IMG/VR virus record: IMGVR_UViG_3300045988_036009
Direction: 5' to 3' (one strand)
Length of the DNA: 58,752 nucleotides
DNA from: a virus
Position 1 is the first letter of the stretch; each line of letters starts with the position of its first letter. Of this stretch, positions 7,645-36,489 are shown one piece after another. The notes beneath the pieces were generated by a model. The model was given only the letters and a program-made list of their open reading frames with translations, was not told the origin of the DNA and made no database searches. The position numbers and the translations under genes are program-made.

Positions 7645-8184
7645 TTAGTAACGTAGAGGATCGATAGCTCTCTTATATTTGGTCTTAGCTTTGCTCTTTT
7701 CCAGTTTGGTGGTAGCGCTAGCTTTTTCCTTTTTATATTGAGCTTTAGCCGCTTTATTCTTTTCTAGGTTACGAACTTGCCGCTCGAGTAATCCGGTTGC
7801 GCTATTATTCTTCTTATAGTTGTCCTTAAGTTTCTTAAGCGCAGCATTACGAGATTCCCAGTTCTTATTCTCTAGTTTGGCAATCTTCTTATTATCGCCT
7901 TTCATACGACCAATACGATCTTCCTTATCCGCGTATTCAGCTTTCAATTTCTTCTTATCAGCCTTATACTTCTTCTTGTCACGCCAATATTGCAAATTGG
8001 TTTTTGTTTTTGCTTTTGATGATAGAAATGGGTGCGTGTAAGAATTAACATAAATCTTACCGACGTTACCAGCAGCTCGAACTGCTTTACGAACACCCCA
8101 CTTCATACCTTTTGTTCCGAAATGAAGTAATACATCATCCATATTATCAACGTGGACCAATTGACCTTCTTCAATCAGTTTCAT
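7645..8184 (-). CDS. Basic protein of the HxGxKGMKWG-motif family (member E)
   Basis: 179 aa. N-terminus ...DDVLLHFGTKGMKWGVRK followed by a Lys-rich (KKKYKADKKKLKAEY...) tail. The ATGA start overlaps the endolysin stop. Confidence 0.75.
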   Translation of the reverse strand: MKLIEEGQLVHVDNMDDVLLHFGTKGMKWGVRKAVRAAGNVGKIYVNSYTHPFLSSKAKTKTNLQYWRDKKKYKADKKKLKAEYADKEDRIGRMKGDNKKIAKLENKNWESRNAALKKLKDNYKKNNSATGLLERQVRNLEKNKAAKAQYKKEKASATTKLEKSKAKTKYKRAIDPLRY

Positions 8185-8918
8185 AGTTTACCTTCCATAT
8201 CTTCAGCATCATCAAGATAGTTGTCGTCAATCCATTGCGCAGATTGCGGTGAACCGATACGAGAATATCCGTCAACCTTCTCATAGACACGCACACGAGA
8301 ACCTTTCTTGAATAGTTCTTTTTCTTCAGCACCAGCGAATGGTTGAGCTTCAACCCAATAGTCCTCTGTGATAGTCGCTTCATAATATGGTTGTTCGCTT
8401 GATGGTAGATGTGTACCAACATTCAACTCATGCTCGAAGCTGTTTTCAGCCATCTCAAGTTGAGGAGGGTTAGGGACACGAGCTCCACCGTTGTAACGAT
8501 AGAAGTAGAAGTATGGTTGACCATTATAACCCCAGATTTCATCGTGGTTATTTCGAGTAATACCATTATATCCATAGTTACAGTGGATAATAGTTCCTTC
8601 TGAGTCTAGGAAAATACCTGTGTGACCAAATGCCCCAGCGGAATATCCTTTTTGTCCCCAGATGAAAATATCACCAGCTTGTACGTCAGCTTCCTCATTT
8701 TCTGCCAACAGTACCCAGCCATTTTGCAACAACCAGTCGTGCATTGTCTCAGTCGAACAAGGCCAAGGTAGAGTACTCATGCCACCGGCTACACCAGCAT
8801 AATACATTGATGATGAACAGTCAAATGAGTCTGGGCCTGTACGATGCAACATGGAATATGTCACTCGTCCTTCACGAGCGACCATCCATGCAATCATCAG
8901 TGCGGGATTTACTGTCAT
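8181..8918 (-). CDS. Endolysin: Pal-type (Amidase_5 family) N-acetylmuramoyl-L-alanine amidase with C-terminal SH3-like wall-binding domain
   Basis: The N-half ...GRVTYSMLHRTGPDSFDCSSSMYYAG...GDIFIWGQKGYSAGAFGHTGIF...IIHCNYGYNGI...GQPYFYFYRY is colinear with the pneumococcal phage Dp-1 Pal amidase module as I remember it. The C-terminal 80 aa look SH3b-like. GGAGGA RBS. Confidence 0.8.
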   Translation of the reverse strand: MTVNPALMIAWMVAREGRVTYSMLHRTGPDSFDCSSSMYYAGVAGGMSTLPWPCSTETMHDWLLQNGWVLLAENEEADVQAGDIFIWGQKGYSAGAFGHTGIFLDSEGTIIHCNYGYNGITRNNHDEIWGYNGQPYFYFYRYNGGARVPNPPQLEMAENSFEHELNVGTHLPSSEQPYYEATITEDYWVEAQPFAGAEEKELFKKGSRVRVYEKVDGYSRIGSPQSAQWIDDNYLDDAEDMEGKL

Positions 8919-8932
8919 ATTAAGTTCCTCCG

Positions 8933-9334
8933 TTAAATTTGTGGTTTGGTTTTCAATGATGACATCTTATTCACTTTGTTTGCTCGAGCTTTCCATTGAG
9001 CAACACGATCTTTTCTAGATTTTACTTTATCGTCAATCAATTTACCATAGGCGTTCTTTTGGAATTTTTCCATCATTTGACGAGTAACTTTATTTTTACC
9101 ATAAATCTTCTCAAGGGTCTTATAGTCTTCAGGGCCATTAAGAGCTTGAGTATCTTTGTATGATTTGATCATGGTTCTATCGCGCCAGTCATCTTTTCGT
9201 TCCTGATCGGTAGCTACGTCTAGGGGTAACATTTCCCGTCCTTCAATGTCCGCACGATTTTTACGCCATTTCATACCCTTTTTACCATAGTGTTGGATTA
9301 CGCTGCGTGAGTCGTCAATTGCTGTGTATGCCAT
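8933..9334 (-). CDS. Basic protein of the HxGxKGMKWG-motif family (member D, diverged)
   Basis: 133 aa. N-terminus ...SRSVIQHYGKKGMKWRKNR, with a Lys/Arg-rich remainder. GGAGGA RBS. Confidence 0.7.
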   Translation of the reverse strand: MAYTAIDDSRSVIQHYGKKGMKWRKNRADIEGREMLPLDVATDQERKDDWRDRTMIKSYKDTQALNGPEDYKTLEKIYGKNKVTRQMMEKFQKNAYGKLIDDKVKSRKDRVAQWKARANKVNKMSSLKTKPQI

Positions 9335-9336
9335 AT

Positions 9337-9858: not shown

Positions 9859-9870
9859 AAATTAACCTCG

Positions 9871-12417
9871 TTATCTAGTAATTTGGTCTGGCCACGGATC
9901 GTCCGTGGTATAAGTCATAGTTGTAAATCGAATATCCCCAATATCACGATCTGTTGGTACGTCGTTCAGGAATTGCAAGCGCACTTGTCTAGAATCAGTA
10001 ACACCACCAACATAGAATGTACCGTAAGGAACACCTTTATCGTTTGTCATATTCCCAAGTTTAGATCCTGTAGGGATAAAGCCTTCTTTAAGACCTCCTT
10101 GAGGAATGATAGTTACAAATTTGTTACGGTCTGATGGGTGATCTGCATATCCAGCAGCGCCTCTTCGTTTAATACCGAACCAACCCCATGCCAATCCACC
10201 CCAAGTCAATTCAACAGTGGAATTGATACGCCGGAATGTCAATACTGCACCGTTTAGAGGAGAACCTGTCATCGGTAATATAACATTTCCAGTATCACCA
10301 TATAACACACGCCAACAATTTCGTGCCTGATTACGATCCGCATTCTCAGCATACATCTGAGTCTTGATCCATTTCAATGCACCGTTCTTACGAAGTCGGT
10401 CGACATATACAGATCCGATTGGAATATTCTTGAGAGTGGCAATATTATCACCATCATATGGGTAATTATTACCAAAGACGGTATCCACATCATTACCAGC
10501 AACAATGGTCGTACCCCCACCAGATCCACCGTTTACAGCTTTAATAGCCTCAGTCATCCGTGACGTGGTCACAAATGGATCTCCACCATTACGCAACTTA
10601 TCATCAACCACAGCATCGATACCAAGAGCTAAGTGTTGGGTCTTGATATTGGTTGTCATTTGGGTTAGAAGATTTTCGTATGTTGGGAAAATAGCATACA
10701 AGTCATTGAGCTTCTTGTATTCTGATGGGATTTCAACAGTTGGAGCGGGTTTGTTCTCAAGAGTTGTAACCCGTCCATCAACGTCACTAACTTGTGATTG
10801 GATACCAGTAACGTCAGATTTAACCTGATTGAGCTCTGGCTTAGTCGCAAAGTTAGTAGTATCGATAGTTGGAGATTCTCCGGGAGGACCGGCCGGTCCC
10901 GCTGGTCCCATAGGACCTGGTTGTCCATCTTCACCTTTAGGGCCACGCTCGCCAGGTTCTCCTTTATCCCCCTTAGGACCCGGAGGTCCAGGAGGGCCTT
11001 GGATACCTTGTTCACCTTGAGGGCCAGGAGTTCCTGAGCCACCACCGCCGTTTGTTTTGAGTTCTTTAAGGTTAATTTCGGCGGTACCAACTCGACCGTT
11101 TAGAAATTCCAAACTTGACCGAAGTTGATTAACCTCAGAAACACTAGGACCTGGCGCGGGAAGTTTTAACAGTACATTTGCACCATTGTATAAAGTTCCT
11201 CCTCCATCAATATCATCGACCATTCGCAAGTCAGAGTCTTTGACAAAGTCATCAAGCTTACCAGCAGTCTTAATATCGTTCCACAAAGTTGTAACATAAG
11301 AATCGTCCTTCTTAAGAATTGTAGTAATATCTTGAGAAGTAAGTTGATCCTTCAGTGTCTTTAAGATCGCCTCAGAAATACTTGCAGATAACTTCTGCTC
11401 AATACCTTCTAGTTTGGTGTTGATTCCAGTGATGTTTGATTCGTTAGTCTCGATCTTGGTAGTAAGTTCGGACTTAACCGTGTCAGCATATCCATGTGTA
11501 TCCACCCCAGCAATTGCCCGTTGGACAATCGGATCGATAAATTCATTTGATTGGAGTTTCTCGTTAATTGTGGAGGTCACACTATCCACAATAGCTTGTT
11601 TCTCCTCTGTGAATTTAGAGTTAACCAAAGCTGTCAAATCCAATTTAAGCTGAGGAATGTCGACGGCATTAACAATCTCCGCTTTAATTTGCTCTGTTTT
11701 GGTGTTGAACTCACTAAGGATATTTGTCTTAATTGTATCCACGTCAATACCAGCAACTTTAGATTCGACGGCTTGAATCTTACTGTCCTGATTTTGCATG
11801 GATTTTGATTGTTCTTCTTTGATTGCATCAACCTTAGCTGTTACAGCCGTAAGAACATCAGATTGGATCTTAGCGGTGTCGATAGACTTGATCACACGAT
11901 TGAAAATGTCATTCTTAAGAGCGACAGTATCAATTTCAACTCCATCTTTGTCCGATAGTCCAGATTTAGCAATAACTTTGTCAATGACACTACGCAAGAA
12001 ATCAGTGTTCACTACGTCGGATCCCACCTCGACATAGATCGGTGATTCGTTTGTGTTGAACTCACGGACAAATAAGTATTTATCAGCTCCAGTATAACCA
12101 CGGTCTGCCCCATCTTCATCTTTTGGTGAAAATACGTCAAACTTCATGGTAATTGAGTCTGATAAAAATGATGATTTTGGAATAACAATCTTGGCATATC
12201 CAGAATAACCAATTAGGTCGTTAGGAATATCCAAATTTAGGCATCCAGTAGTAGGTTCCCATTTTGCTTGTAATTCCGTTGATGTATCATGAGATGTCCG
12301 GAACAAAACACCGGAGATAACCTCTGTATCCCCGGCACTTGGTTCGGCAAATTTGATACTTAAGCTACGATCACTACCATCATCAACGATAGTGACCGGC
12401 GTGTCTAAGTACCGCAT
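9871..12417 (-). CDS. Collagen-like tail fibre / receptor-binding protein
   Basis: 848 aa, AAGGAGGA RBS. Long coiled-coil-like N-half, 18 uninterrupted Gly-X-Y triplets, then a globular C-terminal domain. Lies downstream of Tal. Confidence 0.75.
10873..11034 (-). repeat. Collagen triple-helix repeat (18 x Gly-X-Y)
   Basis: Translation [55 protein letters not shown] locally GC-rich patch in an AT-rich genome. Confidence 0.9.
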
Positions 12418-18350: not shown

Positions 18351-19123
18351 TTAGGAGTTAGAGTTATTGTAGCTGGAGCAGTGCCCTTAGTGGCTGTGAA
18401 ATATACCCGGTTAGTCCGGAGATCATTTCCTGGCTCAAGTTTAAAGAACTCTTTCCCCACAGTATTGTTGTTTTTGTTTGTGATCGTGGATCCTGACTTA
18501 GAATATACAATGTATCGAGTACTATCAATGATGATTGTCTCATTTTGCATGTCCTTAATTGTCATAGCAGTGGATCCAATAGAAATTTTCAAGTTACCCG
18601 TAACACCAGAGAACTGTATTGTTGGTCTGGAGAAATATAGATTTGGATTATCAATCACTTCACCCGAAGTAACAACTCGAGGTTGATTGTCCACATTATA
18701 TTTAAACGGTTGACATTTTAGTTTCACTTTGAATGAAATACATCCTTGATAGAAGTATTTGTTTTCATAAGTGATTTCGGTCATGATAACTTTGTAAATA
18801 TGACTTTGATCAAAATATGGAATGAAGTCAATCCAGTTACCAACCCCATTGTTAAATAGAAAATTGATTCTATTACGGGCTAGTGAAATATCTCGATCTG
18901 AGTCATTATGACTTCGTCCGTCATAGAAACAGCTTAGCTCGAATTCGGTTGGCTCATAACCTTCATCGTCAAAAGCCAACTCTCCTTCGTAGCCATTTGG
19001 TGACTCGAAAGTCACACGTCGTTTAGGTGTTTCTATATCTGGGCGATCTTGGATAAATACATGATAATCTTCAGACTTGTATCCGTTGATCATGAAATAT
19101 CCAGGTTTTAAAGGCATCACCAT
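18332..19123 (-). CDS. Distal tail protein (Dit)
   Basis: 263 aa. The N-terminus ...FMINGYKSEDYHVFIQDRPDIETPKRRVTFESPNGYEGEL and its position between TMP and Tal fit the siphovirus tail-component family. Confidence 0.7.
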   Translation of the reverse strand: MVMPLKPGYFMINGYKSEDYHVFIQDRPDIETPKRRVTFESPNGYEGELAFDDEGYEPTEFELSCFYDGRSHNDSDRDISLARNRINFLFNNGVGNWIDFIPYFDQSHIYKVIMTEITYENKYFYQGCISFKVKLKCQPFKYNVDNQPRVVTSGEVIDNPNLYFSRPTIQFSGVTGNLKISIGSTAMTIKDMQNETIIIDSTRYIVYSKSGSTITNKNNNTVGKEFFKLEPGNDLRTNRVYFTATKGTAPATITLTPNWRVLV

Positions 19124-22100: not shown

Positions 22101-25100
22101 TATCAATGATACCTTTTGAGAATTCAACTATAACTTGAACTCCGGAATCGACTAATTTATGAGCATTTTGTGCTAGACCATCTAACAATGCGATAATCAT
22201 TTGTACTGTGGCAGCGATTATTCGAGGAATACCTTGAGCCAAACCTTCTACAAATTGAACGATCAACTCAATACCGGCTTTCATCAACCTAGGACCGGCT
22301 TGGACAAGTGATTCGACAAATACAAGTAGCCCTTGGACAATGTTTGCAAATGCCGCAGGAGCGGTTTCTGCCAAATTCTTAATTGCCATACTGAATGCCA
22401 AGAATCCGATACCAGCAATAGCGATTGATGATGCGGCCATAATTGAGGACGCACCGAATGACAGTAACGTCTTAGACAATATAGCCATACCTCTAGCGGT
22501 ACCTTGAGCTAATTTAGCGGCACCGATCAAGAGAATCAAGTGACCCGCCAATGCACCCAAACTGATACCCACAGCAATCAAGTTAAGAGATGCTAATAAT
22601 GCAATTGGAACTGCTAATGCCATCAGAGCAACAGATAGAATAAGTAATTTACCGGCATCACCGACGCTTACTTTTTCTAGACTCTTAGACATAATTACCA
22701 ATCCACCCATCGCAGCACCCATAGCCACTGTAGCAGCTAGGATACTTTGCCATGGATAGTTAGCAACTTTGGATAAGGCATTACCTATTGTGTTAACGGC
22801 ATTTGATAATGCGATGATCGCAGCAATATCTCCAGCACTAGCATCGACTTTAGTCATTACTTTGGAAATATAAACGAATCCCGCTAATACAACACCAATA
22901 GCCACAGTAGCGACCGTTAGACTTTGCCATGGCACTTTAGCTACCTTCTCCAAAGCATTACCAATGGATCCGAGCAATCTTGAGAATTGTTCAAATATAG
23001 CGGCAGTGGCCAAAGTTTGTTGGATACTACCAGACATTCCACTAACTTGTTTAGCGGCAAATCCTAAGGCCACAATAACTGCACCAACTCCAGCACAGGC
23101 TGCAGCCAAATTCTTCCATGGAATCGTGGACAGTTTCTGAATGGTTTTACCAATAGAGTATATTGCTAAGGTAAACGCCATCAGAGCGAACATCGACTTG
23201 TAATTAATTTTAATGGATTTCAATAAGTGAGCTACACCTATCAATTCAGCCATAATGGTTGTGATTGTGCCGAGTGCTAATAACACACCGTCCAGACTTA
23301 AAGTAGATAATCCTTCCACAGTCTTACCTAAGATAAATACTGAACCAGCAAATGCAATCATACTGAAAATAGATTTGGAATCTGTTTTTATGCCTTGTAG
23401 AGCGTTCATCACAATAAGCATTTCGCTTAGTAATATACTTATTGTACCGATTGCTAGTAATAACTCATCCCACTTGAATTTAGCCAACTTCTCAACAGAT
23501 AATGCTAAAATATAAACTGATCCAGCAAATGCTATCATAGACATTATCATTTTGTTTTCGAATTTGACGTTACCCATACGTTTCATCGAATGGGTCATAA
23601 CTTCCATCAGACCGCCAACGGAAGCTACTGCAGGAATCATTGTATCAATTGGTAACTTAGCTAATTTCTGAACAGCCAATACGAGGATTCGCACAGATAT
23701 AGCGAAACCAATCATTGACGCCAGAGTTCTACCACCAACAACTGTGCCATTAAGCTGTTTCATACAAAGAACTAAAGCTTCCATTAAGGCAGCAGTTCCT
23801 AGCAATCCTTGTATTGCTGCTTCTGGTTGTAATTTAGCAATTGCTTTGACAGACATTACTAAAATACGTAAAGATATAGCAAAACCAATCATTGAGGCTA
23901 ATGTACGTCCACCTACAACAGTTCCGTTGAGTTGTTTCATACATTGAACTAAGGCTTCCATTAAAGCCACCGTTCCTAATAATCCTTGAAGAGCTGATTC
24001 TGGTTGGAGTTTGGCAATAGCCTTAATAGACATTACTAAAATACGAAGAGAGATCGCGAAACCGATCATAGATGCCATTGTTCGTCCTCCAACAACAACG
24101 CCATTCATTTTCTTCATACATCTAGCAAGCTCTTCCATCAATGCTCCAGCTCCGACCATACCAATAACGGCACCCTCAGGATCTAGTTTAGCGATTGCGG
24201 AAACAGAGCTTACAATTATTCGCAATGCAATAGCAAAGCCAATCATTGCTGTGGCTCCGCCTTTATTGTAGCTTACTTTATCCAGTTCTTTCATGCTATC
24301 AGTCATTGTTCGCATCAAAGCACGAACTCCGACCATAGCGACACCGATCTCAGCTACACCCATGCCTTTTAGTTTGGCAAGGGCGCCCACAATAATACGC
24401 ATCGCAAATGCGAAGGCAATCATCTTGGTAATACCGGCTTTAGATGTTTTCTCAACCTCAGAAAGTCGTTTCATAGACTTAACTAGACCGTTCATGACGA
24501 ATCGAATACCAGCGACAGCAGTTACCATGCTATCCATATCCATACCTTCGAGCTTCTTGAGAGCTCCAGCAAGAATACGAATTGCAATAGCTATACCGAT
24601 TAGAGTGAACCCAGCACCTTTAGGAATTCCGTCAATCGCACCAAGTGTCTTGACTATCTTCATCATTCCGGCCATAGCTGCGCCCATAGCAATCATTGCT
24701 TTAGATAGATCTTTCATATCGATCTTAGACAATTTGTCTAACGATACGGCAAGCATCAAGCAGGCTACAGAAATACCAATAAGGAGACCGACTTTAATAC
24801 CTTTAGAAAAGTCGTTTAGAGCTCCTTTGAAATCATCTAATACCTTCTTAACGAGAGGTACAGACTCTTTACCTTTATCGAGGAATTTGTCAAACATTCC
24901 TTCAAAGCGGTCTAAGAATTTAGTAACTAGAGAGTTATCTCCAGATTTGAATTTAAGCCACTTATCAAATGCAAATAATCCAATTAAGGCTTGAATAATA
25001 TCTGCTCCATGGAATGACTTGAAAATATCTTTCAATAAGTCATAACCCTGTTTCGCCATGTTAGCGATACCAGAGAATACTGATTTGATAGTTCCACCAA

Positions 25101-27417
25101 TTTGTCCAACAATATTGGATAATCCAGATTTGACAGACGATAGAGAATTCTTTAGTCCTTCTCCAATATTGCCAAAGGCTTTACCCACAACATCTTTTAC
25201 TTTACCAAAGTTATTCTTAACTCCAGATAAAATATTAGACATACCAGTATCCAATCCATCAATAAATGATCGCATACTTGGCGAAATAGCCTTAAGACCG
25301 TTCTTAATAGAATTTCCTATTTTGGCAAATATACCGTTATCGGAGAATGTCTTAGGAAATGCTTTGGCGATAGATTTGAATCCATCGACAAGTTTAGGAA
25401 CCATACCTTGGAATAATCCACTAAATGCTGTCAATATTCCTTTGAACACACCAAACTTCTGGATAGAAGATCGCAATCCTTCTACGAATTTTCGAATACC
25501 ATCCGTAATCTTAACCAACATGTCAGTGAATTTAAGCAATCCACCACCACTGTTAGTTCCGAAATTAAACAATGAGAAGAATCGTGATACGATATCTGCA
25601 GCGATTTTGAATAATGTCCCTAGAATGCTCAACATATTACCAATCACTTTACCAATGTTGACAAAGCTTTGCATAATGTTATGGTTCTGGCGCATAGTGT
25701 TTAAGAATTTAGTAATTCCGTCGGCAGCTCTTTTGAATACGAGAATAACCCCGTCCATAGATCCGACTGTTGAATTAAATCCTAAAGATAGTTTATGAAC
25801 AATCGTCCATACAGTGTTGAACACAGCACCAAACATTCTACCAAGAGAAATAAGTGTCTCTTGAATAGCAGCATTCTTCTTCAAGTTCTCAGTGAAGTTT
25901 CTGAAACCTTCGGTAACACTCAATAATCTTTTAGCAGACTCTTCGTACGTACCAATGGACTCACGGAAGCCCTCACGGAAATTAGTCATGGACTTGAATA
26001 CAAATTCAAAACCATTCTTGATTGAGTCAAAGAACGCTGTTTGTCCACCCATGTCTTTCCATGTTTTCAACATGGCATTTCGGTAGTTACCTAGACTACG
26101 CTCCATGTCAAGAACCGTGTCATGATAAGTTCCTTGAGAATCGTCGAAGAATTTGTTAACAATTTTTCCGACGTCGGTCCAAAGTGCCTTAGCCTCTTCA
26201 AATCCACCAAATAAGTATTCCCAAGAAGTGGCCCATCCAGAACCAATTGCTTCTTGTACGGTGTCTACCAGTTGTCCAAAGGATTTGATTTGAGTTGCGG
26301 CATTTAACATCGCCTCATCTACTGAGAATTCTTTCAAAGTATTAATCAATACTTCGGATGTTAACCAACCGCTTTTCAAAGACTCACGGAATGATTTAGT
26401 CATATCCCGAGCATTACCCATCTTCTCAGCCATTTGAGTCAATCGGTCTTGGAATAACTTACCACCCATACCGGCATTTACTACAGAGTTCCAGTCCTGA
26501 AGACCTACTTTACCTGAAGCCAATGCTTGAGACAATTGGTACATTGCCATAGAGGCTTGTTCTGTGTTTGACCCAGATGCTGCGGCCAAGTTGGAAATAC
26601 CTTTAATCGCAGTGGCTGAATCTTCTAGACCCACACCGGCTGCAGTAAATGTACCGATGTTTTTGGTCATATCTTTGAATGAGTAAATGGTTTTGTCGGC
26701 ATACTCATTCAAGTCCTCTAACACTTTAGAGGTTTTACGCATACGCATACTTTGATCCGGAATTTCCCACTCAGTATTCGTCATGATTGTTTGTACAGAT
26801 CCGAGTTTCTCTTTGTACTCGTTTAAACCATCAACTGGTCCAGCAAAGAATTTAGAACCGAAGTTGATAGCTTTCTGTAGCATGTTACCCATGACAATAC
26901 CCATAGCGACATCCATTGCATTAAGAGATCCTTTAACGGAATCTGCTGCTCTAGAAAATGCACCAGTAAGTGGGTTCAGATTGATACCAGATGCTTTTGT
27001 ATTTAAGCTGTCAATAGATTTGACAGAATTGGGAAATCCCTGGTGATTATCCGCCTTTTGAAATATACCTTTCAACCGGGAGAGAATACTAGATGTCTTA
27101 GACGTTCTGCTAGCAACATCAGTATTCATCTGCTCGATTGATTTAGCAGCACCGGTCATGTTAATTCCTTCGGTACTACGAGTAAACATTCCTTTAAGAC
27201 GAGATAATAGGCCTTGGGATTTTGACGTTGATTTTGAAATTGCGTCAGGGATTGCGTTCATCTCCTTGGCAATGTTCTTTGATGCGTTACCGCCATTGAT
27301 CTTAGCGAAGGCTTGCTTCATCTTCTCAAGAGCGGAGATTGTGTCAGTCGCGTTTTTGGTAAAGCCCTTATTATCCAGAGTTACCTTGGCGACTTTCTCA
27401 TCAACATATCCGGCCAT
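19117..27417 (-). CDS. Tape measure protein (2766 aa)
   Basis: Largest ORF, located between the chaperones and Dit. Helical low-complexity sequence, about 12 tandem 59-aa hydrophobic repeats, Gly/Ala/Ile-rich repeats and a Met-rich segment. Confidence 0.9.
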   Translation of the reverse strand: MAGYVDEKVAKVTLDNKGFTKNATDTISALEKMKQAFAKINGGNASKNIAKEMNAIPDAISKSTSKSQGLLSRLKGMFTRSTEGINMTGAAKSIEQMNTDVASRTSKTSSILSRLKGIFQKADNHQGFPNSVKSIDSLNTKASGINLNPLTGAFSRAADSVKGSLNAMDVAMGIVMGNMLQKAINFGSKFFAGPVDGLNEYKEKLGSVQTIMTNTEWEIPDQSMRMRKTSKVLEDLNEYADKTIYSFKDMTKNIGTFTAAGVGLEDSATAIKGISNLAAASGSNTEQASMAMYQLSQALASGKVGLQDWNSVVNAGMGGKLFQDRLTQMAEKMGNARDMTKSFRESLKSGWLTSEVLINTLKEFSVDEAMLNAATQIKSFGQLVDTVQEAIGSGWATSWEYLFGGFEEAKALWTDVGKIVNKFFDDSQGTYHDTVLDMERSLGNYRNAMLKTWKDMGGQTAFFDSIKNGFEFVFKSMTNFREGFRESIGTYEESAKRLLSVTEGFRNFTENLKKNAAIQETLISLGRMFGAVFNTVWTIVHKLSLGFNSTVGSMDGVILVFKRAADGITKFLNTMRQNHNIMQSFVNIGKVIGNMLSILGTLFKIAADIVSRFFSLFNFGTNSGGGLLKFTDMLVKITDGIRKFVEGLRSSIQKFGVFKGILTAFSGLFQGMVPKLVDGFKSIAKAFPKTFSDNGIFAKIGNSIKNGLKAISPSMRSFIDGLDTGMSNILSGVKNNFGKVKDVVGKAFGNIGEGLKNSLSSVKSGLSNIVGQIGGTIKSVFSGIANMAKQGYDLLKDIFKSFHGADIIQALIGLFAFDKWLKFKSGDNSLVTKFLDRFEGMFDKFLDKGKESVPLVKKVLDDFKGALNDFSKGIKVGLLIGISVACLMLAVSLDKLSKIDMKDLSKAMIAMGAAMAGMMKIVKTLGAIDGIPKGAGFTLIGIAIAIRILAGALKKLEGMDMDSMVTAVAGIRFVMNGLVKSMKRLSEVEKTSKAGITKMIAFAFAMRIIVGALAKLKGMGVAEIGVAMVGVRALMRTMTDSMKELDKVSYNKGGATAMIGFAIALRIIVSSVSAIAKLDPEGAVIGMVGAGALMEELARCMKKMNGVVVGGRTMASMIGFAISLRILVMSIKAIAKLQPESALQGLLGTVALMEALVQCMKQLNGTVVGGRTLASMIGFAISLRILVMSVKAIAKLQPEAAIQGLLGTAALMEALVLCMKQLNGTVVGGRTLASMIGFAISVRILVLAVQKLAKLPIDTMIPAVASVGGLMEVMTHSMKRMGNVKFENKMIMSMIAFAGSVYILALSVEKLAKFKWDELLLAIGTISILLSEMLIVMNALQGIKTDSKSIFSMIAFAGSVFILGKTVEGLSTLSLDGVLLALGTITTIMAELIGVAHLLKSIKINYKSMFALMAFTLAIYSIGKTIQKLSTIPWKNLAAACAGVGAVIVALGFAAKQVSGMSGSIQQTLATAAIFEQFSRLLGSIGNALEKVAKVPWQSLTVATVAIGVVLAGFVYISKVMTKVDASAGDIAAIIALSNAVNTIGNALSKVANYPWQSILAATVAMGAAMGGLVIMSKSLEKVSVGDAGKLLILSVALMALAVPIALLASLNLIAVGISLGALAGHLILLIGAAKLAQGTARGMAILSKTLLSFGASSIMAASSIAIAGIGFLAFSMAIKNLAETAPAAFANIVQGLLVFVESLVQAGPRLMKAGIELIVQFVEGLAQGIPRIIAATVQMIIALLDGLAQNAHKLVDSGVQVIVEFSKGIIDNMGILVQTAVEMATKFVEEFGKALIGVKDRLIPALTQLLSVISEIILKVLQELVGPIIEGILHIMEPIIEVILQVIERIAQALAPILVPLIDAIKTLIQEVSNVVQAIADTVIAIVENLGSIIRSIADVIIAVVDTIRAAIEGFVTIVQTLGQTIQVIFLSIASIVNSVMQGIVGAINGFANVIRSVGEALKNVFVGIGQGIQAALQGVASVVQSIGGAIKAAFEGIGAAAQGIGQGIQSALQGVASVVQSIGGAIKSALEGVGKAFEGAGKFAEGFGKGIEHVMNGVAKIVDSVGNAIKGIIEAVGKAFKDVGKGIELMGKGMKPIADHGFQAAAAITAVSGAVALLGGASYTGNLNGFREDLDKLDTVMYKMSTRKGSGGAIKDIASALKTASSAAPSAASALEKFASSSEKIKSSASGMASNIKGVASALSGISQASMGASPGIVLLAAGLEKVANTLTQFIARITALAASMSSLGMIFTTTGSAVANLSTAFTSISTGTTAFGNAMNQAKTALAQFSASAAGSTTSFAVLGTAMTMAMTLVVNAVNNGMNQARAALQQGFAMMGMSAATSMTSVVMAVNMGMISVVNAIRTNIASVSTVISTGMAQAAAGMARGFAMMGVSASTSMALVRTTVTMGMLGIVQSIQNSMNQAAQAMTSSMARIAQAMSLSMSQINAQMNMSLNMMRVSMQMAFMTMQMTIMTAMMQMANQIRSSSAMMQATMFQLGNQMVSAMRMAMALLNVTILTGMMQAANGVRSAAGIAHAGGVYVGSMISQGVAAGIRAHLGSVIAATNEIVAQAERAARAKAKIKSPSRLFAANVGKYIPQGVAMGIAKEMPRTVKQMGKTFANGFSDVTSLAVDHANGMASAVADAVNTVGTLLDDSLADMDYRPTITPVVDTTNLDKLQNGNILSGLNVDPTNVPRPAYPGAPGSLHSNNTNVYDNSNKEYSITVKVDNGGKPVDGKQLAREIQQHIKDFDDQARRGKGEEVLW
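21331..21513 (-). repeat. 108-bp (36-aa) tandem duplication inside the tape measure gene
   Basis: GIGQGIQ(A/S)ALQGVASVVQSIGGAIK(A/S)A(F/L)EG occurs twice. The DNA copies start at 21331 and 21439. Confidence 0.8.
22500..24621 (-). repeat. About 12 tandem 177-bp (59-aa) repeats inside the tape measure gene (outer copies diverged; the left boundary is approximate)
   Basis: Central copies are nearly identical, e.g. GGRT(M/L)ASMIGFAISLRILVMS(I/V)KAIAKLQPE(S/A)A(L/I)QGLLGT(V/A)ALMEALV(Q/L)CMKQLNGTVV. Equivalent ATG codons lie at 23763, 23940 and 24117, a period of 177. Confidence 0.85.
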
Positions 27418-27430: not shown

Positions 27431-27958
27431 TTACCATGAAGTGTTTGTTACATCCTTAATATGACGGCCTGCGTTTCTAGAGCTAGACATGCTAGCGTCT
27501 AGATCTCTTAATAAGTCATTAAGTTTTTGGTGTCTATCGGCGATGTTTGTAAACGCTCCCCTTTTAGTATTTCCTAGATTAGAAAAGCTGTTGTTAATAG
27601 ATGAAGAACTTACTTTCTTAGCTTTTCTTAAAGTGGAAACATTATTCTTTAGGCTTTCAGAATTTACGTTAAATCCTTTTTTATACCCAACGGTCTTATT
27701 AAGAGGACGGCTACCGCCACTTCCATCGAATAAAGATGCATAATGTGAAGATAGTTCACGTATTAGTTTGTTTCTTTTATAGCTGTTATATCCTTTATAC
27801 CCAGCATATGCAGCGGCACCAGCAAGAGCTATTCCTCCACCGATCATTGCAGCCTTCTTCAGTTTTTTCTGGGTAGATCTTCTAATTCCCCATTTCATTC
27901 CTTTGGTTCCAAAGTGTTGGATTACGTCATCGGAGTGAATAATAAACGAAGCATCCAT
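27431..27958 (-). CDS. Basic protein of the HxGxKGMKWG-motif family (member C) with one TM-like segment
   Basis: 175 aa. N-terminus MDASFIIHSDDVIQHFGTKGMKWGIRR, then AAMIGGGIALAGAAAYAGY and a Ser/Asn/Lys-rich tail. Confidence 0.75.
   Translation of the reverse strand: MDASFIIHSDDVIQHFGTKGMKWGIRRSTQKKLKKAAMIGGGIALAGAAAYAGYKGYNSYKRNKLIRELSSHYASLFDGSGGSRPLNKTVGYKKGFNVNSESLKNNVSTLRKAKKVSSSSINNSFSNLGNTKRGAFTNIADRHQKLNDLLRDLDASMSSSRNAGRHIKDVTNTSW
27888..27934 (-). repeat. 47-nt perfect direct repeat with 28670..28716
   Basis: ccccatttcattcctttggttccaaagtgttggattacgtcatcgga is identical at both sites. It encodes SDDVIQHFGTKGMKWG. Confidence 0.9.
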
Positions 27959-27973: not shown

Positions 27974-28333
27974 TTATTTTAGATAGTCTTTCAAGACTTT
28001 ATCGATTGCAGATTTGTAGGCCGAATCGATAGCTTTAATAATATATGGGTGTGGAGGAACATAGCCTCCCGTACCAGTTCCGTGACCATAGTGAATTATT
28101 ATAGCGATATTAACACCCTTATTAATATGAGTGTTAAATATCTCTAGTTCTTCACCACGACCAGTTTTGTTGATTTTATAACCCCACGAATTAGCTGTTT
28201 TACCAGATTTGTATGGAGTTGCGGCTTTTAGAGCCTCGACAATAGCTTTACCTAGTGCATCTAAAGAGACCCTTCGATCTCTCTTTAAATACTTTTCTAG
28301 ATTATTGAACGAACCGCTTGTTGTTATTCTCAT
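27974..28333 (-). CDS. HK97 gp10-like head-tail/tail-completion family protein
   Basis: 119 aa. ...ALKAATPYKSGKTANSWGYKI...IAIIIHYGHGTGTGGYVPPHPYIIKA matches the gp10-family pattern (TP..tG.l..sw ... yG ... PF/Y..A). Confidence 0.6.
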   Translation of the reverse strand: MRITTSGSFNNLEKYLKRDRRVSLDALGKAIVEALKAATPYKSGKTANSWGYKINKTGRGEELEIFNTHINKGVNIAIIIHYGHGTGTGGYVPPHPYIIKAIDSAYKSAIDKVLKDYLK

Positions 28334-28743
28334 TCACTTCGTTCCTTATAACTTTTCTTAAGATCTTTCTTAGCAGTCTTATATGCTTTCTTAAGAGCCT
28401 TATTACGTTTCTTGAACTTGTGTTTATACATATGACTGCCGTCCATAGATCTCATCGCAGCTTCGGCACCAATGCCCATTGCTCCGTATCGGGTCAATAA
28501 GTTGTTGCCTGTGAGAAGTCCACCATACATAGAAGCGATACTAGTTTTATAACCTAGTCGTCTCCAAAAATCGGGTTTCTTACCTTTGTATAGTTCTTTA
28601 GACTTTCTGAGTGATTGTTTGTAGTTCTTTTTAAGAGCATGCTTATCACTCATATAGTTTTTACGAACTCCCCATTTCATTCCTTTGGTTCCAAAGTGTT
28701 GGATTACGTCATCGGAATGAATTATAATGGTTGGATCGATCAT
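28330..28743 (-). CDS. Basic protein of the HxGxKGMKWG-motif family (member B)
   Basis: 137 aa. N-terminus MIDPTIIIHSDDVIQHFGTKGMKWGVRKN, with a Lys-rich remainder and a Gly-rich hydrophobic patch. Confidence 0.75.
   Translation of the reverse strand: MIDPTIIIHSDDVIQHFGTKGMKWGVRKNYMSDKHALKKNYKQSLRKSKELYKGKKPDFWRRLGYKTSIASMYGGLLTGNNLLTRYGAMGIGAEAAMRSMDGSHMYKHKFKKRNKALKKAYKTAKKDLKKSYKERSE
28670..28716 (-). repeat. 47-nt perfect direct repeat with 27888..27934
   Basis: Same 47-mer as at 27888..27934. The two copies bracket the gp10-like gene. Confidence 0.9.
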
Positions 28744-30781: not shown

Positions 30782-31097
30782 TATAAACTCCTCCTAAATC
30801 CACGATAACTCTAGGGGCTTTACCTACATCGAAACTTTCGACTTTCCATTTCACCCCTTGGTATTCCATATAAAGCAAATTCGAAATGTGCTTCATAAAG
30901 AATTGGTCAGCAACTAATGAAATTTGGTTGGTAATGCGGATATTGTCAATAGTAGATTTGTCGCCATTTTGATCGCGTCGGTATCTAGAACTGATCACAT
31001 CTCCGCGCACTCGTTTAACAACCAATTGTGGTTCATAAACATCTGGTTCGACTTCAACATCCTTTAATCGAAAACCAGCATTACCAAAGTATTTCAT
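30726..31097 (-). CDS. Head-tail connector / head-closure protein (by position)
   Basis: 123-aa ORF starting on the stop of the capsid gene. Confidence 0.5.
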   Translation of the reverse strand: MKYFGNAGFRLKDVEVEPDVYEPQLVVKRVRGDVISSRYRRDQNGDKSTIDNIRITNQISLVADQFFMKHISNLLYMEYQGVKWKVESFDVGKAPRVIVDLGGVYNEQENAYPGHSDESNSEV

Positions 31098-32995
31098 TAT
31101 CCACCTACTCGAGTAGCTTCTGTTCCGCTAGTTGCAGCATCTTCAGCACGAGCGCCTTTAGCTTTAGGTTTGAAGTAAACCGCAGCTTTAGCGCGAACAA
31201 GAGCACCTGAAAGACGAGTTTCAATCAAGTATTTCTGTTTGTTGTAGTCGATATCAAAGTGTTCGAATGTGTTAACTTCACCACCCTTGTTAGTACCGAT
31301 TTGGTAGTCAGCAAGGTTAACCATGATCATTTCGTCAGGTTTCAAGAAGTTAGTTTCAACGATTTCAGCAACACCAAACAATGAAGCAAGATATTCTTTA
31401 GTGGCAGGTTGTTGCCCACCGAATACCCATTGTTCGTTCTTGTTGCGGAGGAAACGAAGTTTAGTCAAGAACAAAGGATTCACGTAAAGTGATGGAGTTC
31501 CTGAACCAAGCATCTTAGTTTTCTCAGTTGCAACAGTTTCGAACAAGTCAAGAAGCATGTCTGGGTTGTAGTCAGCTTTGATTGTGTAGAAGTCTTCGTC
31601 CTTAGTAATAGGGCGGATCTTATCTTCTTTGATCTTAGCAGCGTCACCAGTAGCACGTCCGTCAGATACCAAGATTGCTTGCGCAATTTCGTCATTCAAC
31701 TTGATGCGCATTTCTTGGTTGAAGAATGCTGCAACGTTCAATTGTTGGCCGATATCGATAGCATCGTCACGGTCGATTGATTGTTTTTTATAGATCGTTT
31801 GAGGATCAGTTTTACGAGAAAGGAATGAAATGATTTGTTCTTTCTTTTCAGTTCCTTTGATGTAACCTTTAGCACGAAGTTGTTCGTCAGTAAGGTCAGA
31901 CAAGTCAGTCATGATAGACTTAACAAATGCTGTTGGCACTTTAGTTACACGAGACAAGATGTGTTCTGTCGCAGTGTTTGGTGAGTAGATTACTTGAACC
32001 CCACCTTGAAGTTGGTGATCCGGGAACAACTTGTCGATGTTGTTCATTGAGTGTTTAAGGACATCTCCACCATCAACTTCAGCAAGAATGTTACTTAGTT
32101 TGAGACCACGTTGTTGAGCAGTTTGCATTGCTTCTGTCAACGAATGACGGATCTCTTCGTTGTTGTTTGTGTTTTGTTCAAATGCGTTGTAGTGCATCAA
32201 AGTTCCTCCATTGTCAGATTGTTCGATTTCTTCATCGTCATCTTCTTCGTCAGCTTCTGCTGCGATTTCTTCAAGAATTTCGTCAACACGAGCATCAACT
32301 CGGTTATCGATTTCTTCGGCAATTGAAGCTTCATGTGCTTCGAGGGCGGCATTCGCTGCAGCTTCAGTCAAGATAGCTACTGCTTCTTGTTGATCTTCGT
32401 TCAAAGTTCCTAAAACTTCATCAAGAACTTCGCTCTCAGTTCCTTCGTCAGCGTGTTGGATACGGTCGAATAGACTTACACGATCATTACCAACCAAGAC
32501 GTCGCTCGCTGAGTGAATAAGTTCGTTACTTTCCATTAAAATAACTTCTCCTTCGTCTGGGTTCTCTGAGTGTTGTAACACTTCAGTGATGACTGCTCCA
32601 GGATTTGCTCCTGCAAGCACTAGCGATACTTCATAGATGTTACCATGAATTACATCATTTGCTGGAGTCCGCTTAATACGGTTAGCCCCAATAGACATAT
32701 GCATGATATCACCATGTTGTACAAGTTCCTTGGCGTTTTGGGCTTTTTGGGTATTATTGAAATATCCTCGGCCGTAAACACCTTCATCCGCATGTTGTAG
32801 CTCAACATGTCCAATGATGTTTTCTGGAGTGCTCGGGTCGTGTGACCAAACCAGAGGCACTCGCTTTCCATCATTTTCTTTGAAGGCTCCATGACGGATA
32901 GTGACACCGTCTGTACAACGCATGTCATTTCGGGTTACGTAACCCGCGAAATCATACTTAGGATGTTTTCCCATTATACGATTAACCTCCATCAA
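31097..32995 (-). CDS. Prohead protease (HK97/S78 family) fused to an acidic scaffold-like linker and an HK97-fold major capsid protein
   Basis: The N-terminal 150 aa (...DGVTIRHGAFKENDGKRVPLVWSHDPSTPENIIGHV...MSIGANRIKR) match the S78 protease pattern. aa 150-270 are acidic (DEEDDDEEIEQ). The C-terminal 350 aa (...FFNQEMRIKLNDEIAQAILVSDGR...KIKEDKIRPI...) are capsid-like. The start is ambiguous: TTG 32995, ATG 32992 or ATG 32974. Confidence 0.75.
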   Translation of the reverse strand: MMEVNRIMGKHPKYDFAGYVTRNDMRCTDGVTIRHGAFKENDGKRVPLVWSHDPSTPENIIGHVELQHADEGVYGRGYFNNTQKAQNAKELVQHGDIMHMSIGANRIKRTPANDVIHGNIYEVSLVLAGANPGAVITEVLQHSENPDEGEVILMESNELIHSASDVLVGNDRVSLFDRIQHADEGTESEVLDEVLGTLNEDQQEAVAILTEAAANAALEAHEASIAEEIDNRVDARVDEILEEIAAEADEEDDDEEIEQSDNGGTLMHYNAFEQNTNNNEEIRHSLTEAMQTAQQRGLKLSNILAEVDGGDVLKHSMNNIDKLFPDHQLQGGVQVIYSPNTATEHILSRVTKVPTAFVKSIMTDLSDLTDEQLRAKGYIKGTEKKEQIISFLSRKTDPQTIYKKQSIDRDDAIDIGQQLNVAAFFNQEMRIKLNDEIAQAILVSDGRATGDAAKIKEDKIRPITKDEDFYTIKADYNPDMLLDLFETVATEKTKMLGSGTPSLYVNPLFLTKLRFLRNKNEQWVFGGQQPATKEYLASLFGVAEIVETNFLKPDEMIMVNLADYQIGTNKGGEVNTFEHFDIDYNKQKYLIETRLSGALVRAKAAVYFKPKAKGARAEDAATSGTEATRVGG

Positions 32996-34327: not shown

Positions 34328-34337
34328 ATTGGCCTCT

Positions 34338-36068
34338 CTAAGCCGCGTATAGATCCATGTTGCGTTTAAACGCTACCCATGCGTCGATCAGTGCGGCTAC
34401 GTTATCGATCTTTTCATCAGATCTTCGTTTCGATAACTTGTAGTTACCGTTATTATCCTGAATAGCGACAGCATTACCCATCGCAAATTTCATTAGCTCT
34501 TCGTCAAATATTAATTGACGTTCCATAGCCAAGTTCTTCAACTCGCCCATAGGTACAGATTCTGTACGAGACCCTTGGATAATCTTTTCTACGCCATACT
34601 CACCGTTATCTCTAGACCAACGCTCAACAAATTCTCGAGCATTATATGGGTCGAAACCAAATGAGTAAACGACGTAGTTGTGTCTATAAATAAAGTTTGT
34701 TAGATCATCGTATACCTTATTCATATCTAATACAACGTCCGGCATGACAATAAGTGTACCTTCATCAATGAAAGTGTCATACTTATTGCGCATCGCAGAA
34801 GTCAATTTCTTAAGCTTAGACTCACATACATAAGATCTGGTCTTAACACCAAATCTACCACGGCCCAATGGGAATAAGAATGTAAATGCACAGAAGTCAT
34901 CACCTTGAGAAAGGTCTCCTCCCATTGCACATTCCAGTCCATCGAAGTTTTGAGGTCTATGAGGAATAGTCTCTTCGTAAACGAAGAAGTAAGTGTATCC
35001 CTCAACCGGTATTCCGAAACGTTTAGCCAGAGTATCAGCACGAGTTGATGGTTGAGTCTCTGCTCGTTCCACTTCTCGTCGATAAGTCTCGTAGCTAACA
35101 GTTGCTCCCAGGTTTGGATTGGCCTTAAGCCATGTTTCTGGGTGTGCTACCTCACGAACATCATCAAGTCTGTAGTACCAGATTGATACATGAGGGTTGA
35201 AATACCGACCTTCTAGTATGTCAGTTAGCTCCATTTTGATTGTATCACCAACACCGTCCCGGGCCGTACCTTCGGACGACGTGGCTATGATAAGGTAGTT
35301 GTCATTCTTAGATGCACCCTGTTCGATCGCGCCGATAACATTATCTCGAACTTCTCCGGATAGCCATTCGTCAACCGCTGCATACTTACAACGTAATCCT
35401 TGAAGTTTATCGACCGACATTGGGCGAATCTCTAACAAACTGTTTGTTGCGAAGTTCTCCACACCTTTCTTGGTTGATGCTAGCAACTGTTTCTGGGTAA
35501 GATTCCCAGTCATCTTAGATCCTTGGACCATATACCGAATCATTGGGCCTTTAGCTCGACTCAAAGCCGTTCTGAATGGACCCATAATTTCCTCGGCCTG
35601 TTTCATTGTAGGGGCACAGACGATTTGGTGTGTTGTAGCTGTATCTATCAGTAACATGTAAGCTTGCATGTACGTAGAATACATTGACTTCGCAGCTCCC
35701 CGTCCAACAATTAGAAATTGTTTATTGACAAGTCGCTTGAATTTTGATTTTATCTCCCATTTACCTAGTTTAGGATTGTAAACTTTGTCTTCTGAGACAT
35801 AAAACCATGCAAGGGCACATTCGGCCCAGAGTTTAAACGACGGCAGAAGAGTTACGTCACTACCGTCGGTGAGGGTCATTTCATTTTCGCAAAATCTTAC
35901 AAAGCCCTCAATCGCTTTACTATCATAGTAATAATCCGGCGACTCGATTAAGAAATCGATACGGTTCATTTCCAGTGATACCATCCGATTGACCGGAATT
36001 TCACCTCTAAGAACTTGCTCCTTAAACTTCATATACTCTTCCGGATATGCTTTGTTCGAAAGTACCAA
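34338..36068 (-). CDS. Terminase large subunit (Terminase_1-like)
   Basis: 576 aa, TTG start after AAGGGAG. Walker A FLIVGRGAAKSMY, N-terminus ...FVRFCENEMTLTDGS...LLPSFKLWAE typical of this family, plus a C-terminal nuclease-like half. Confidence 0.85.
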   Translation of the reverse strand: MVLSNKAYPEEYMKFKEQVLRGEIPVNRMVSLEMNRIDFLIESPDYYYDSKAIEGFVRFCENEMTLTDGSDVTLLPSFKLWAECALAWFYVSEDKVYNPKLGKWEIKSKFKRLVNKQFLIVGRGAAKSMYSTYMQAYMLLIDTATTHQIVCAPTMKQAEEIMGPFRTALSRAKGPMIRYMVQGSKMTGNLTQKQLLASTKKGVENFATNSLLEIRPMSVDKLQGLRCKYAAVDEWLSGEVRDNVIGAIEQGASKNDNYLIIATSSEGTARDGVGDTIKMELTDILEGRYFNPHVSIWYYRLDDVREVAHPETWLKANPNLGATVSYETYRREVERAETQPSTRADTLAKRFGIPVEGYTYFFVYEETIPHRPQNFDGLECAMGGDLSQGDDFCAFTFLFPLGRGRFGVKTRSYVCESKLKKLTSAMRNKYDTFIDEGTLIVMPDVVLDMNKVYDDLTNFIYRHNYVVYSFGFDPYNAREFVERWSRDNGEYGVEKIIQGSRTESVPMGELKNLAMERQLIFDEELMKFAMGNAVAIQDNNGNYKLSKRRSDEKIDNVAALIDAWVAFKRNMDLYAA

Positions 36069-36084
36069 AAATTAACTCCCTTAC

Positions 36085-36489
36085 TTAATTCTTCTTTTTA
36101 GATGCTGACCCAGCAACTGCATCGAAACCGGAGTTTACAGATTTCTTGACTACAGATCCTACCGCAGTACGGGCCATATCACGGAAGAAACTATCTTTAT
36201 TAGATGGTTTCATAGTAACTTGAGCATTACGTTTAATTTGTTCCGCGAAATCATTTTCCAATCTTAATCGTTCTGTTGCTCTACGTATGTCCTTATCGGT
36301 CATAGAAGCACGATTCTGATATTTCTTTTTCCACTTGGCAGTGGTTCTTGCAGAGTTTTTGGCTCTTCGTCGAGCCCGAACATTAGATGCTCGGTTCTTT
36401 CTAAAACCCCACTTCATGCCTTTGATACCAAAGTGTTCGATAAAATCGGAAGAAGAATCTACTGAAACCAACTCATTCTGGTTTTGCAT
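36085..36489 (-). CDS. Basic protein of the HxGxKGMKWG-motif family (member A)
   Basis: 134 aa. ...SSSDFIEHFGIKGMKWGFRKNR followed by an Arg/Lys-rich segment (RARRRAKNSARTTAKWKKKYQNR). Confidence 0.75.
   Translation of the reverse strand: MQNQNELVSVDSSSDFIEHFGIKGMKWGFRKNRASNVRARRRAKNSARTTAKWKKKYQNRASMTDKDIRRATERLRLENDFAEQIKRNAQVTMKPSNKDSFFRDMARTAVGSVVKKSVNSGFDAVAGSASKKKN

Follow-up and report, generated by a model that had tools for sequence, protein, structure and literature searches.

The phage genome held in IMG/VR as IMGVR_UViG_3300045988_036009 (58,752 nt; hereafter the window, meaning the whole stretch of DNA analysed) encodes five proteins, A to E, which share a short motif belonging to the Pfam family DUF7211 (PF23847). 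We suggest that this motif is a signal for procapsid loading and prohead protease processing of internal or ejected cargo, similar to the capsid-targeting sequence (CTS) of T4, and on the sequence evidence we put the probability of this reading at about 55%. It is favoured because DUF7211 is coupled to a protease::capsid fusion, occupies positions in the head module, has a homologue annotated as structural in Lactococcus phage 1706, is associated with protease-like elements and appears disordered. In addition, it is followed by hypervariable basic or hydrophobic tails or by enzymatic cargo, and recombination breakpoints fall at the motif.

In the proposed mechanism, the motif would be a short, intrinsically disordered signal marking a protein, or each module of a polyprotein. 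Its first half, containing an h-x-H element (h, hydrophobic residue), would be recognised by the protease domains lining the procapsid during head assembly, and an optional h-x-H-S-D element located about 10 residues upstream would be recognised likewise. The leader or the inter-module junction would then be cut by the S78 protease, and the basic or hydrophobic cargo would remain with the DNA and exit with it at infection. Rather than following the motif, the cut would likely be made ahead of its first half or within it. The packaging, cleavage and ejection of DUF7211 proteins are events that we infer from sequence.

The five bearers of the motif are:

36085-36489, minus strand: member A, 134 aa; DUF7211 motif at aa 15-31 (36397-36447), then a conserved helical-hairpin module
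28330-28743, minus strand: member B, 137 aa; leader IIHSD (28711-28725), motif at aa 12-28 (28660-28710), basic tail
27431-27958, minus strand: member C, 175 aa; leader IIHSD (27929-27943), motif at aa 11-27 (27878-27928), hydrophobic segment at aa 36-54
8933-9334, minus strand: member D, 133 aa; motif at aa 11-27 (9254-9304), without Gly after Trp and without an h-x-H-S leader element
7645-8184, minus strand: member E, 179 aa; leader LVHVD (8146-8160), motif at aa 17-33 (8086-8136), tail with 31% Lys+Arg

The DUF7211 motif and its bearers

All five open reading frames (ORFs) listed by the first-pass annotation, which was made from the letters of the sequence, were confirmed on the minus strand; each begins with ATG, shows a Shine-Dalgarno-like sequence and, within the late operon, adjoins or overlaps the genes next to it. 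When all six frames were scanned for H[FYW]Gx[KRL]G[MQ][KR]W, two substitutions being tolerated, exactly five matches emerged, all within A to E, and the chance expectation for such a 9-residue pattern in 58.7 kb is below one occurrence.

The motif had initially been left outside any named family. This proved incorrect, because it corresponds to DUF7211, a 25-position model of unknown function according to Pfam, and A to E are new members of this already catalogued family. A, B, C and E score 38.9, 37.2, 31.2 and 38.6 bits, respectively, all above the gathering cut-off of 27 bits. The score of D (22.9 bits) is below the cut-off because its “KWRKNR” lacks the Gly after Trp; since D keeps H-Y-G-x-K-G-M-K-W and reaches 43 bits against a hidden Markov model (HMM) built from the lineage copies, it is a divergent member rather than a non-member. 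Among 407 copies, the consensus is [DE][DE]-F-L-x-H-[YF]-G-V-K-G-M-K-W-G-V-R-[KR], or, in its general form, [DE][DE]-[FV]-[LI]-x-H-[FY]-G-x-K-G-M-K-W-G-x-R-[KR]. The His, two Gly and Trp residues are invariant, the Gly after Trp is kept in 99% of the copies, and the flanks are acidic before the motif and basic after it.

An exhaustive HMM search with the motif, which the first-pass annotation had proposed, returned 10,053 representatives of clusters formed at 50% identity (E <= 1e-3), and many PHROGs of unknown function contain the motif. An earlier search with a 40-aa N-terminal profile gave only proteins of 29-76 aa, which are truncated or frameshifted copies and are not representative. No mention of DUF7211, PF23847 or the GMKWG motif was found in the searchable literature, the motif is unmentioned in the Arthrobacter phage papers (Klyczek; Giantsbane), and no chain in PDB carries it. 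The searchable literature is also silent on the multi-copy architecture, polyproteins, effector fusions and the link to the protease::capsid fusion. These features, together with the RNA polymerase variant considered below, appear to be undescribed so far.

The five proteins had been characterised as Lys/Arg-rich tails following a shared N-terminal motif, with a transmembrane-like segment in C. The basic composition is evident: the Lys+Arg content of the tail is 28% in A, 29% in B, 19% in C, 26% in D and 31% in E versus a median of 13% for the ORFs of this phage, and the whole-protein isoelectric point is 9.9-11.0 versus a median of 6.2. The segment in C was found as a Gly/Ala-rich hydrophobic stretch at aa 36-54, and C is the only one of the five to have such a segment. 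The motif is N-terminal in the window, its Trp being at residue 23-29 in all five proteins, but in relatives it can be internal and repeated 2-5 times per protein. Similarly, the tails are unrelated in that no alignable similarity exists among the five outside the motif, but the tail of A is a widely conserved module. This module has a second conserved motif, W53..KY..R60..D67..RL..EN..AEQ..R87, inside the predicted helical hairpin, and it also forms the last module of polyproteins in relatives. The AlphaFold2 model of A is of low confidence (mean predicted local distance difference test, pLDDT, 61.6), with helices at 33-58 and 65-91 and a disordered motif region (pLDDT ~50), which is as expected for a peptide that would fold on binding. 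A Foldseek search of this model against BFVD gave no significant match.

Conservation of the motif acts on the protein, since the motif DNA of A, D and E uses different synonymous codons, with many third-position changes and fixed amino acids. For B and C, the DNA of the leader and motif (27878-27958 versus 28660-28740) is 88% identical over 75 nt, with a near-identical stretch of 48-75 nt, which indicates a recent duplication or gene conversion.

The protease::capsid fusion and candidate cleavage sites

The gene to which DUF7211 is coupled, and whose product would be both the enzyme processing the motif bearers and the partner on which they dock, is the following:

31097-32995, minus strand: fusion of an S78 prohead protease, a scaffold-like linker and an HK97-fold capsid protein, 632 aa (Pfam Peptidase_S78, 40.2 bits; phrog_3270)

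These two matches agree with the first-pass statement that the prohead protease is fused to the capsid protein. A co-occurrence test in related genomes, suggested at the same time, showed that the fusion (592-945 aa) is carried by 53 of 53 DUF7211 loci in which a portal gene is followed by 2.2 kb or more of sequence. The protease part is present in 62 of the 63 fusion ORFs, and three out of three loci chosen via distant homologues of the fusion (~42% identity) carry DUF7211 before TerL. As for the matches in bacterial genomes, 20 of 21 lie beside signature genes of the phage lineage, head genes being included in 19 of these.

Alignments of the fusion with 55 and 45 homologues revealed conserved h-x-H elements in the linker (residues 128-320) at His142, 161, 181, 268, 284 and 315. 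In the 45 homologues, His142 is invariant and His161, His284 and His315 are conserved in at least 90%. The sequence contexts are V-L-x-H-S-D for His142, L-I-H-S-A-D for His161, M-K-H-N-V-F for His268, L-x-H-S for His284 and L-x-H-[GS]-I for His315. The AlphaFold2 model based on the 45-sequence alignment (mean pLDDT 74.6) has a confident protease at 16-127, a long helix at 200-250 and a capsid domain from about residue 320. His142, 268, 284 and 315 belong to segments with pLDDT below 50, which places most of the elements in parts predicted to be disordered, His315 standing just before the capsid domain; His161 is in a short strand (pLDDT 60-71) and His181 at the end of a short helix (pLDDT ~51). 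The linker also holds a 50-residue acidic helix. Judging from their conservation, the h-x-H(S) elements of the linker are probably autoprocessing sites with His at P1.

Similar elements are found in front of the motif. In the window proteome (19,011 aa), [LIVMF]xH[SAVT][DENSA] occurs 13 times: five occurrences are in the fusion, and three are in B (IIHSD), C (IIHSD) and E (LVHVD), each time among the 13 residues at the N-terminus. Of 329 internal junctions of polyproteins from relatives, 32% contain [LIVMF]xH[SATV] in the 30 residues ahead of the motif, versus 4.1% of random windows; the element peaks 9-12 residues before the motif His, in the context L/V-(K/E)-H-S-D. Moreover, the first half of DUF7211 itself, [FV]-[LI]-x-H-[FY]-G (D-h-L-x-H), resembles the h-x-H-S elements of the fusion linker. 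The h-x-H(S) sequences common to the fusion linkers, the leaders of B, C and E and the polyprotein junctions represent candidate cleavage sites.

Known sites of prohead and assemblin proteases are L/I-x-E in T4 and V/L/I-x-A|S in herpesviruses. By analogy, the candidate sites would follow the rule of a hydrophobic P3 and a fixed P1, which is typical of other assemblin-fold prohead proteases. In SPN3US, gp245 cleaves after A-x-E and Ser is preferred at P1' (PMC10052503).

Gene neighbourhood, polyproteins and the RNA polymerase

The window is a complete phage genome of ~58.7 kb with 39.5% G+C, and nearly all of its genes are on the minus strand. A repeat with a 33-nt period, which encodes a Lys/Pro/Glu-rich peptide on the minus strand, is present at both ends (4-147 and 58611-58742); since it is one and the same repeat, the window is a circularly closed genome cut inside a repetitive ORF. 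PHROG and Pfam searches gave the following order on the minus strand: the YonO-like RNA polymerase, small genes including an LLH holin, a conserved 104-aa protein, an HNH endonuclease, a connector-like protein, A, TerL and the portal; then the S78 protease::capsid fusion, head-tail genes, the major tail protein, two chaperone-like genes, B, a tail-completion protein and C; finally the tape-measure protein (TMP, 2766 aa), Dit, Tal, a collagen-repeat fibre, D, an Amidase_5 endolysin and E. The genes mentioned here besides A to E and the fusion are:

38910-41522, minus strand: YonO-like/RdRP-like single-subunit RNA polymerase, 870 aa, with DFDGD, a weak Pfam RdRP match and helix-turn-helix domains at both ends
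37547-37933, minus strand: LLH holin (Pfam)
36473-36823, minus strand: connector-like virion structural protein (Phage_connect_2 / phrog_4247), with a phrog_4247 match and PF24829 on homologous genes
19117-27417, minus strand: tape-measure protein, 2766 aa
9871-12417, minus strand: fibre with collagen-like G-X-Y repeats
8181-8918, minus strand: endolysin, Amidase_5 and SH3b_T

The placement of the family at module boundaries, as originally described, stands. A is located between the connector-like gene, which is its fixed upstream neighbour and overlaps its start by 17 nt, and TerL; B and C are on both sides of the tail-completion (gp10-like) gene, upstream of the TMP; D and E are on both sides of the endolysin, D upstream, and E overlaps the endolysin stop codon by 4 nt. 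A lysis function is not needed for D and E, because a separate LLH holin and Amidase_5 endolysin are available and the E-type gene of the closest relative is away from the lysin. Inside the TMP there are tandem repeats, 3 x 177 nt at 23652-24182 and others of 54 nt at 21311-21513, and near its C-terminus one h-x-H-A-N element (aa 2634).

To describe the positions of DUF7211 genes more widely, we surveyed 79 IMG/VR loci and 21 loci from bacterial genomes or metagenome-assembled genomes (MAGs). The slots are occupied as follows:

connector to TerL (slot of A): 59 of 62 loci
TerL to portal (0-7 genes): 29 of 68 loci
chaperone to tail-completion (slot of B): 19 of 47 loci
tail-completion to TMP (slot of C): 17 of 42 loci
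downstream of the tail genes (slots of D and E): recurrent

From this occupancy it follows that A is a near-universal core member, and B to E are accessory members in variable slots. Saliva virus D_HF5_2C, the closest sequenced phage (76% identity across the structural genes), likewise carries five DUF7211 genes, in slots that match those of the window. Human saliva is the source of the closest relatives, and a 57-kb relative (L095) was placed in a Streptococcus bin; an oral Firmicute is the probable host.

A tblastn search with the motif found 910 copies in 238 phage records, typically about four per genome (3-8 each among the records listed), the hosts being Arthrobacter, Gordonia, Streptomyces, Rhodococcus, Microbacterium, Curtobacterium, Lactococcus and Faecalibacterium. 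The motif is kept as protein from phages of low-GC Firmicutes to high-GC actinophages, and the hosts span two phyla. DUF7211 is a hallmark of the siphovirus lineage comprising Lactococcus phage 1706 and actinophage clusters BI, AM, AU, AW, DJ, CC and EL. This inter-phylum lineage was described by Koert et al. as having in common an HNH, connector, TerL, portal, protease-capsid fusion, helicase, RecB-like nuclease and RdRP/YonO-like polymerase (bioRxiv 10.1101/842583). The only DUF7211 locus found away from the morphogenesis module is L107, a 173-kb contig of a Faecalibacterium MAG, where a 141-aa DUF7211 protein (9965-10390) has no head genes within 10 kb; an integrase gene and homologues of the window early-region genes 56553-57206 and 54223-55083 are nearby. 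A DUF4258-like toxin in its cargo was only a guess that Pfam did not confirm.

In the best-scoring relatives, each protein has 2-5 motifs spaced by ~200 aa (interquartile range 176-229), as exemplified by a 760-aa polyprotein with four motifs encoded between the connector gene and TerL. The 55 longest relatives include 21 with a LigT-like 2H phosphoesterase, four with a GNAT acetyltransferase, one with a papain-fold glutamine-deamidase toxin and one with CW_7. For example, the slot of A holds a LigT-like domain joined to DUF7211 both in Gordonia phage OhMyWard (gp16) and in Rhodococcus phage ReqiPepy6 (gp013), and OhMyWard gp18, in the TerL to portal slot, has the arrangement DUF7211 - GNAT - DUF7211; two more fusions with the deamidase toxin were found in the latter slot. 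The LigT-like 2H phosphoesterase, which precedes either DUF7211 polyproteins or the polymerase variant of the motif (L080 2107-5235; P0087; P0091; L087 5491-7212; L005 10681-12276), is a candidate injected enzyme acting against RNA- or cyclic-nucleotide-based defence. Lactococcus phage 1706 ORF7, with two motifs, occupies the slot of A ahead of TerL, and its record labels it “structural protein”; in phage P118 the region of this ORF is split into two genes.

Chimeric relatives have their breakpoints at the motif (P0017/P0040 join D-type or E-type leaders to one identical tail), which suggests that the motif acts as a recombination breakpoint between paralogues. In a relative of C (L088 2501-3549), a 1-nt deletion just after GMKWGV breaks the gene into an ORF of 32 aa that holds only the motif and a cargo ORF of 322 aa that has a Met of its own; this variant is present on three contigs, and in several other relatives stops occur right after W-G, in a TGGGG run.

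The YonO-like polymerase was identified as the RNA polymerase of the lineage (bioRxiv 10.1101/842583). In the window its N-terminus carries a variant of the motif, DMLEHRGTPHQGSIPHSGRYAWGSG (aa 9-33; 41424-41498), the first half of which matches DUF7211. The variant is kept in homologues (SLQHYGTKRHSGRYPWGSG in phage 1706, TLAHYGTPRHSGRYPWGSG in locus L026) with the pattern L-x-H-x-G-T-[PK]...SGRY-x-WGSG. Comparison of this N-terminus with DUF7211 by hhalign gave a probability of 88.6% (P = 2.6e-6) over the first 14 columns, and in a global alignment W-G also matches after a 4-residue insertion. In the relative L080, a LigT-like domain precedes the polymerase variant in the same way as LigT precedes DUF7211 in polyproteins. 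Judging from these sequence similarities, the polymerase is possibly a sixth bearer of the signal.

A 33-nt element is present in eight copies in the window, at 5205, 5973, 6874, 6973, 7082, 7583, 44150 and 58045 (+ coordinates), with the coding strand TTTCGCAGAAATTACAnnnnCTATAATGAAaAG. They hold a perfect TATAAT and stand before small, putative early genes, so that the element looks like a sigma-70-type promoter family. This arrangement suggests that the host RNA polymerase starts the infection, which counts against packaging of the phage polymerase.

Alternative explanations and comparison with known systems

The first alternative, to which we assign a small probability, is that the motif docks its bearers onto the terminase, portal, connector or tail/TMP, A possibly being the missing TerS or a packaging accessory. 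A is in the classical TerS position directly upstream of TerL at 59 of 62 loci, PHROG and NCBIfam scans recognised no TerS elsewhere in the module, and A is very basic with a predicted long helical hairpin; TerS oligomerisation cores are helical hairpins comparable to this one. B and C, in turn, adjoin the tail chaperones and the TMP. However, A has no TerS match in Pfam, PHROGs, NCBIfam or a PDB profile search, and its 1706 homologue is labelled as a virion structural protein, which is unusual for TerS. In addition, docking leaves the effector fusions, polyproteins and protease-like elements unaccounted for.

It is slightly less probable again that the motif acts in the host cell, as a module binding a conserved Gram-positive target such as nucleic acid, membrane, wall or a host protein. 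The strict tie of the family to the head module of one lineage, in hosts of two phyla, argues against this possibility, and so do the location of all five genes in the late operon and the lack of likeness to known DNA-, membrane- or wall-binding motifs. An NCBIfam scan (E <= 0.1) likewise gave no signal-peptide model for A to E. Host targeting would, nevertheless, agree with the basic stretches and occasional hydrophobic segments after the motif, with its joining to enzyme and toxin-like domains, and with the half-motif on an RNA polymerase that need not be packaged, given the TATAAT promoters before putative early genes. The KxYKxGKxW type of Gram-positive signal peptide (model TIGR03715) was rejected because it had no NCBIfam match at the same threshold and the hydrophobic segment is present in C only.

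We have still less confidence in the motif being a polyprotein-processing junction only, that is, a relic in stand-alone genes for which packaging is not required. Many relatives do consist of 2-5 modules ~200 aa apart with the motif at each junction, and the two-motif 1706 ORF7 corresponds to two separate genes in P118, but the synonymous differences between A, D and E point to purifying selection on the motif in single-module genes. Furthermore, the motif often starts at residue 2-5, where cutting would be pointless, and 17 conserved residues, with Gly, Gly, Trp and Gly invariant among them, are more than a cleavage site by itself would require. Finally, a DNA- or RNA-level repeat (a recombination linker, promoter or regulatory element within the coding sequence) might be imagined from the near-identical 48-75 nt of B and C and the chimeras breaking at the motif, but it is hardly credible in view of the third-codon changes with fixed amino acids in A, D and E and of the protein-level conservation from low-GC Firmicutes to high-GC actinophages, and recombination at the motif more plausibly results from this conservation.

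The reading of the motif as a procapsid-loading and processing signal was anticipated by the first-pass annotation, which proposed capsid targeting or protease processing. The 1706 ORF7 label, the link to the fusion in 53 of 53 loci, the linker-like elements and the effector fusions lend that guess indirect and partial support, and what has to be given up is the idea of a strictly N-terminal tag. Several points weigh against the reading as a loading and processing signal. The sole “structural protein” label for a DUF7211 protein, that of 1706 ORF7, is a database-record annotation, and phage 1706 has other small “structural” proteins without the motif. Cleavage after His is what we infer from conservation only, and we know of no S78 protease with His at P1. 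A and D have no upstream h-x-H-S element, and the conserved second half, KGMKWGxRK, remains unexplained by the proposal. B and C among the tail genes and D and E beside the endolysin would suit tail-lumen or lysis-related roles. The natural frameshift that separates the motif from its cargo may mean that the tag is dispensable for at least one member.

The best-known parallel is provided by the internal proteins of T4, which share only the CTS, are directed into the prohead core, trimmed by the prohead protease and injected (PMC3012670). As in IPI/II/III and Alt of T4, the pattern in A to E is that by which this functional class is recognised, namely a short N-proximal peptide common to otherwise unrelated, basic and hypervariable proteins of one phage; the T4 cargo includes enzymes and anti-defence proteins. 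The CTS has no sequence similarity to DUF7211, and the T4 internal-protein families are absent from the Pfam/PHROG matches of A to E. Unlike the CTS, DUF7211 is longer (~17-25 aa), can be internal and is repeated in polyproteins; it belongs to HK97-type siphoviruses of Gram-positive hosts with the protease fused to the capsid, where it would be a putative counterpart of the CTS.

The internal head proteins of the giant phages phiKZ and SPN3US have N-terminal propeptides with multiple P3-x-P1 sites and Ser preferred at P1', and the virion RNA polymerase is among them (PMC10052503). The ejection proteins of giant phages differ in having A-x-E instead of h-x-H, no common long tag and the capsids of jumbo myoviruses; their RNA polymerase is multisubunit with demonstrated packaging, whereas that of the DUF7211 lineage is single-subunit. 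Proteins of the MuF/SPP1 gp7 type are similar to DUF7211 proteins in that their genes lie beside the portal and terminase and a constant head-association part is combined with a variable effector or toxin (here GNAT, 2H phosphoesterase and Gln-deamidase). MuF, however, is a folded domain of ~300 aa and DUF7211 is a linear motif, and no Phage_Mu_F match was found in A to E or the ~80 relatives scanned.

A broader proposal, which we offer tentatively and consider rather doubtful, is that DUF7211 and h-x-H constitute a general modular cargo-loading system in a very widespread lineage of Gram-positive siphoviruses, in which any protein with a tag of ~20 residues would be captured by the protease domains fused to every capsid subunit, trimmed, packaged with the DNA and injected. 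Its cargo would comprise anti-defence and takeover enzymes (2H phosphoesterase, GNAT and glutamine-deamidase toxin), membrane-active and DNA-binding proteins and, by way of its N-terminal variant of the tag, the YonO-like polymerase. If this is true, the lineage would be a siphovirus counterpart of the N4, crAss-like and jumbo phages with virion RNA polymerases.

Should the motif be a procapsid-loading and processing signal, this would give a function to a family of great size, with over 10,000 clusters at the 50% identity level, which is carried by phages of Streptomyces, Arthrobacter, Gordonia, Rhodococcus, Lactococcus and Faecalibacterium, as well as by abundant phages of the human oral cavity and gut. 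An h-x-H specificity would be predicted for the capsid-fused S78 protease, and the virion status of the YonO-like polymerase of the lineage would become directly testable. The motif would also represent a short portable tag for loading foreign proteins into the capsids of Gram-positive phages, for use in delivery, display and phage-therapy engineering. For phage biology, it would mean that ordinary-sized HK97-type siphoviruses of Gram-positive hosts carry diversifying injected proteins, which are documented mainly for T4, P22/T7-like and jumbo phages, and that the “capsid-targeting/internal protein” theme has a variation in these common siphoviruses.

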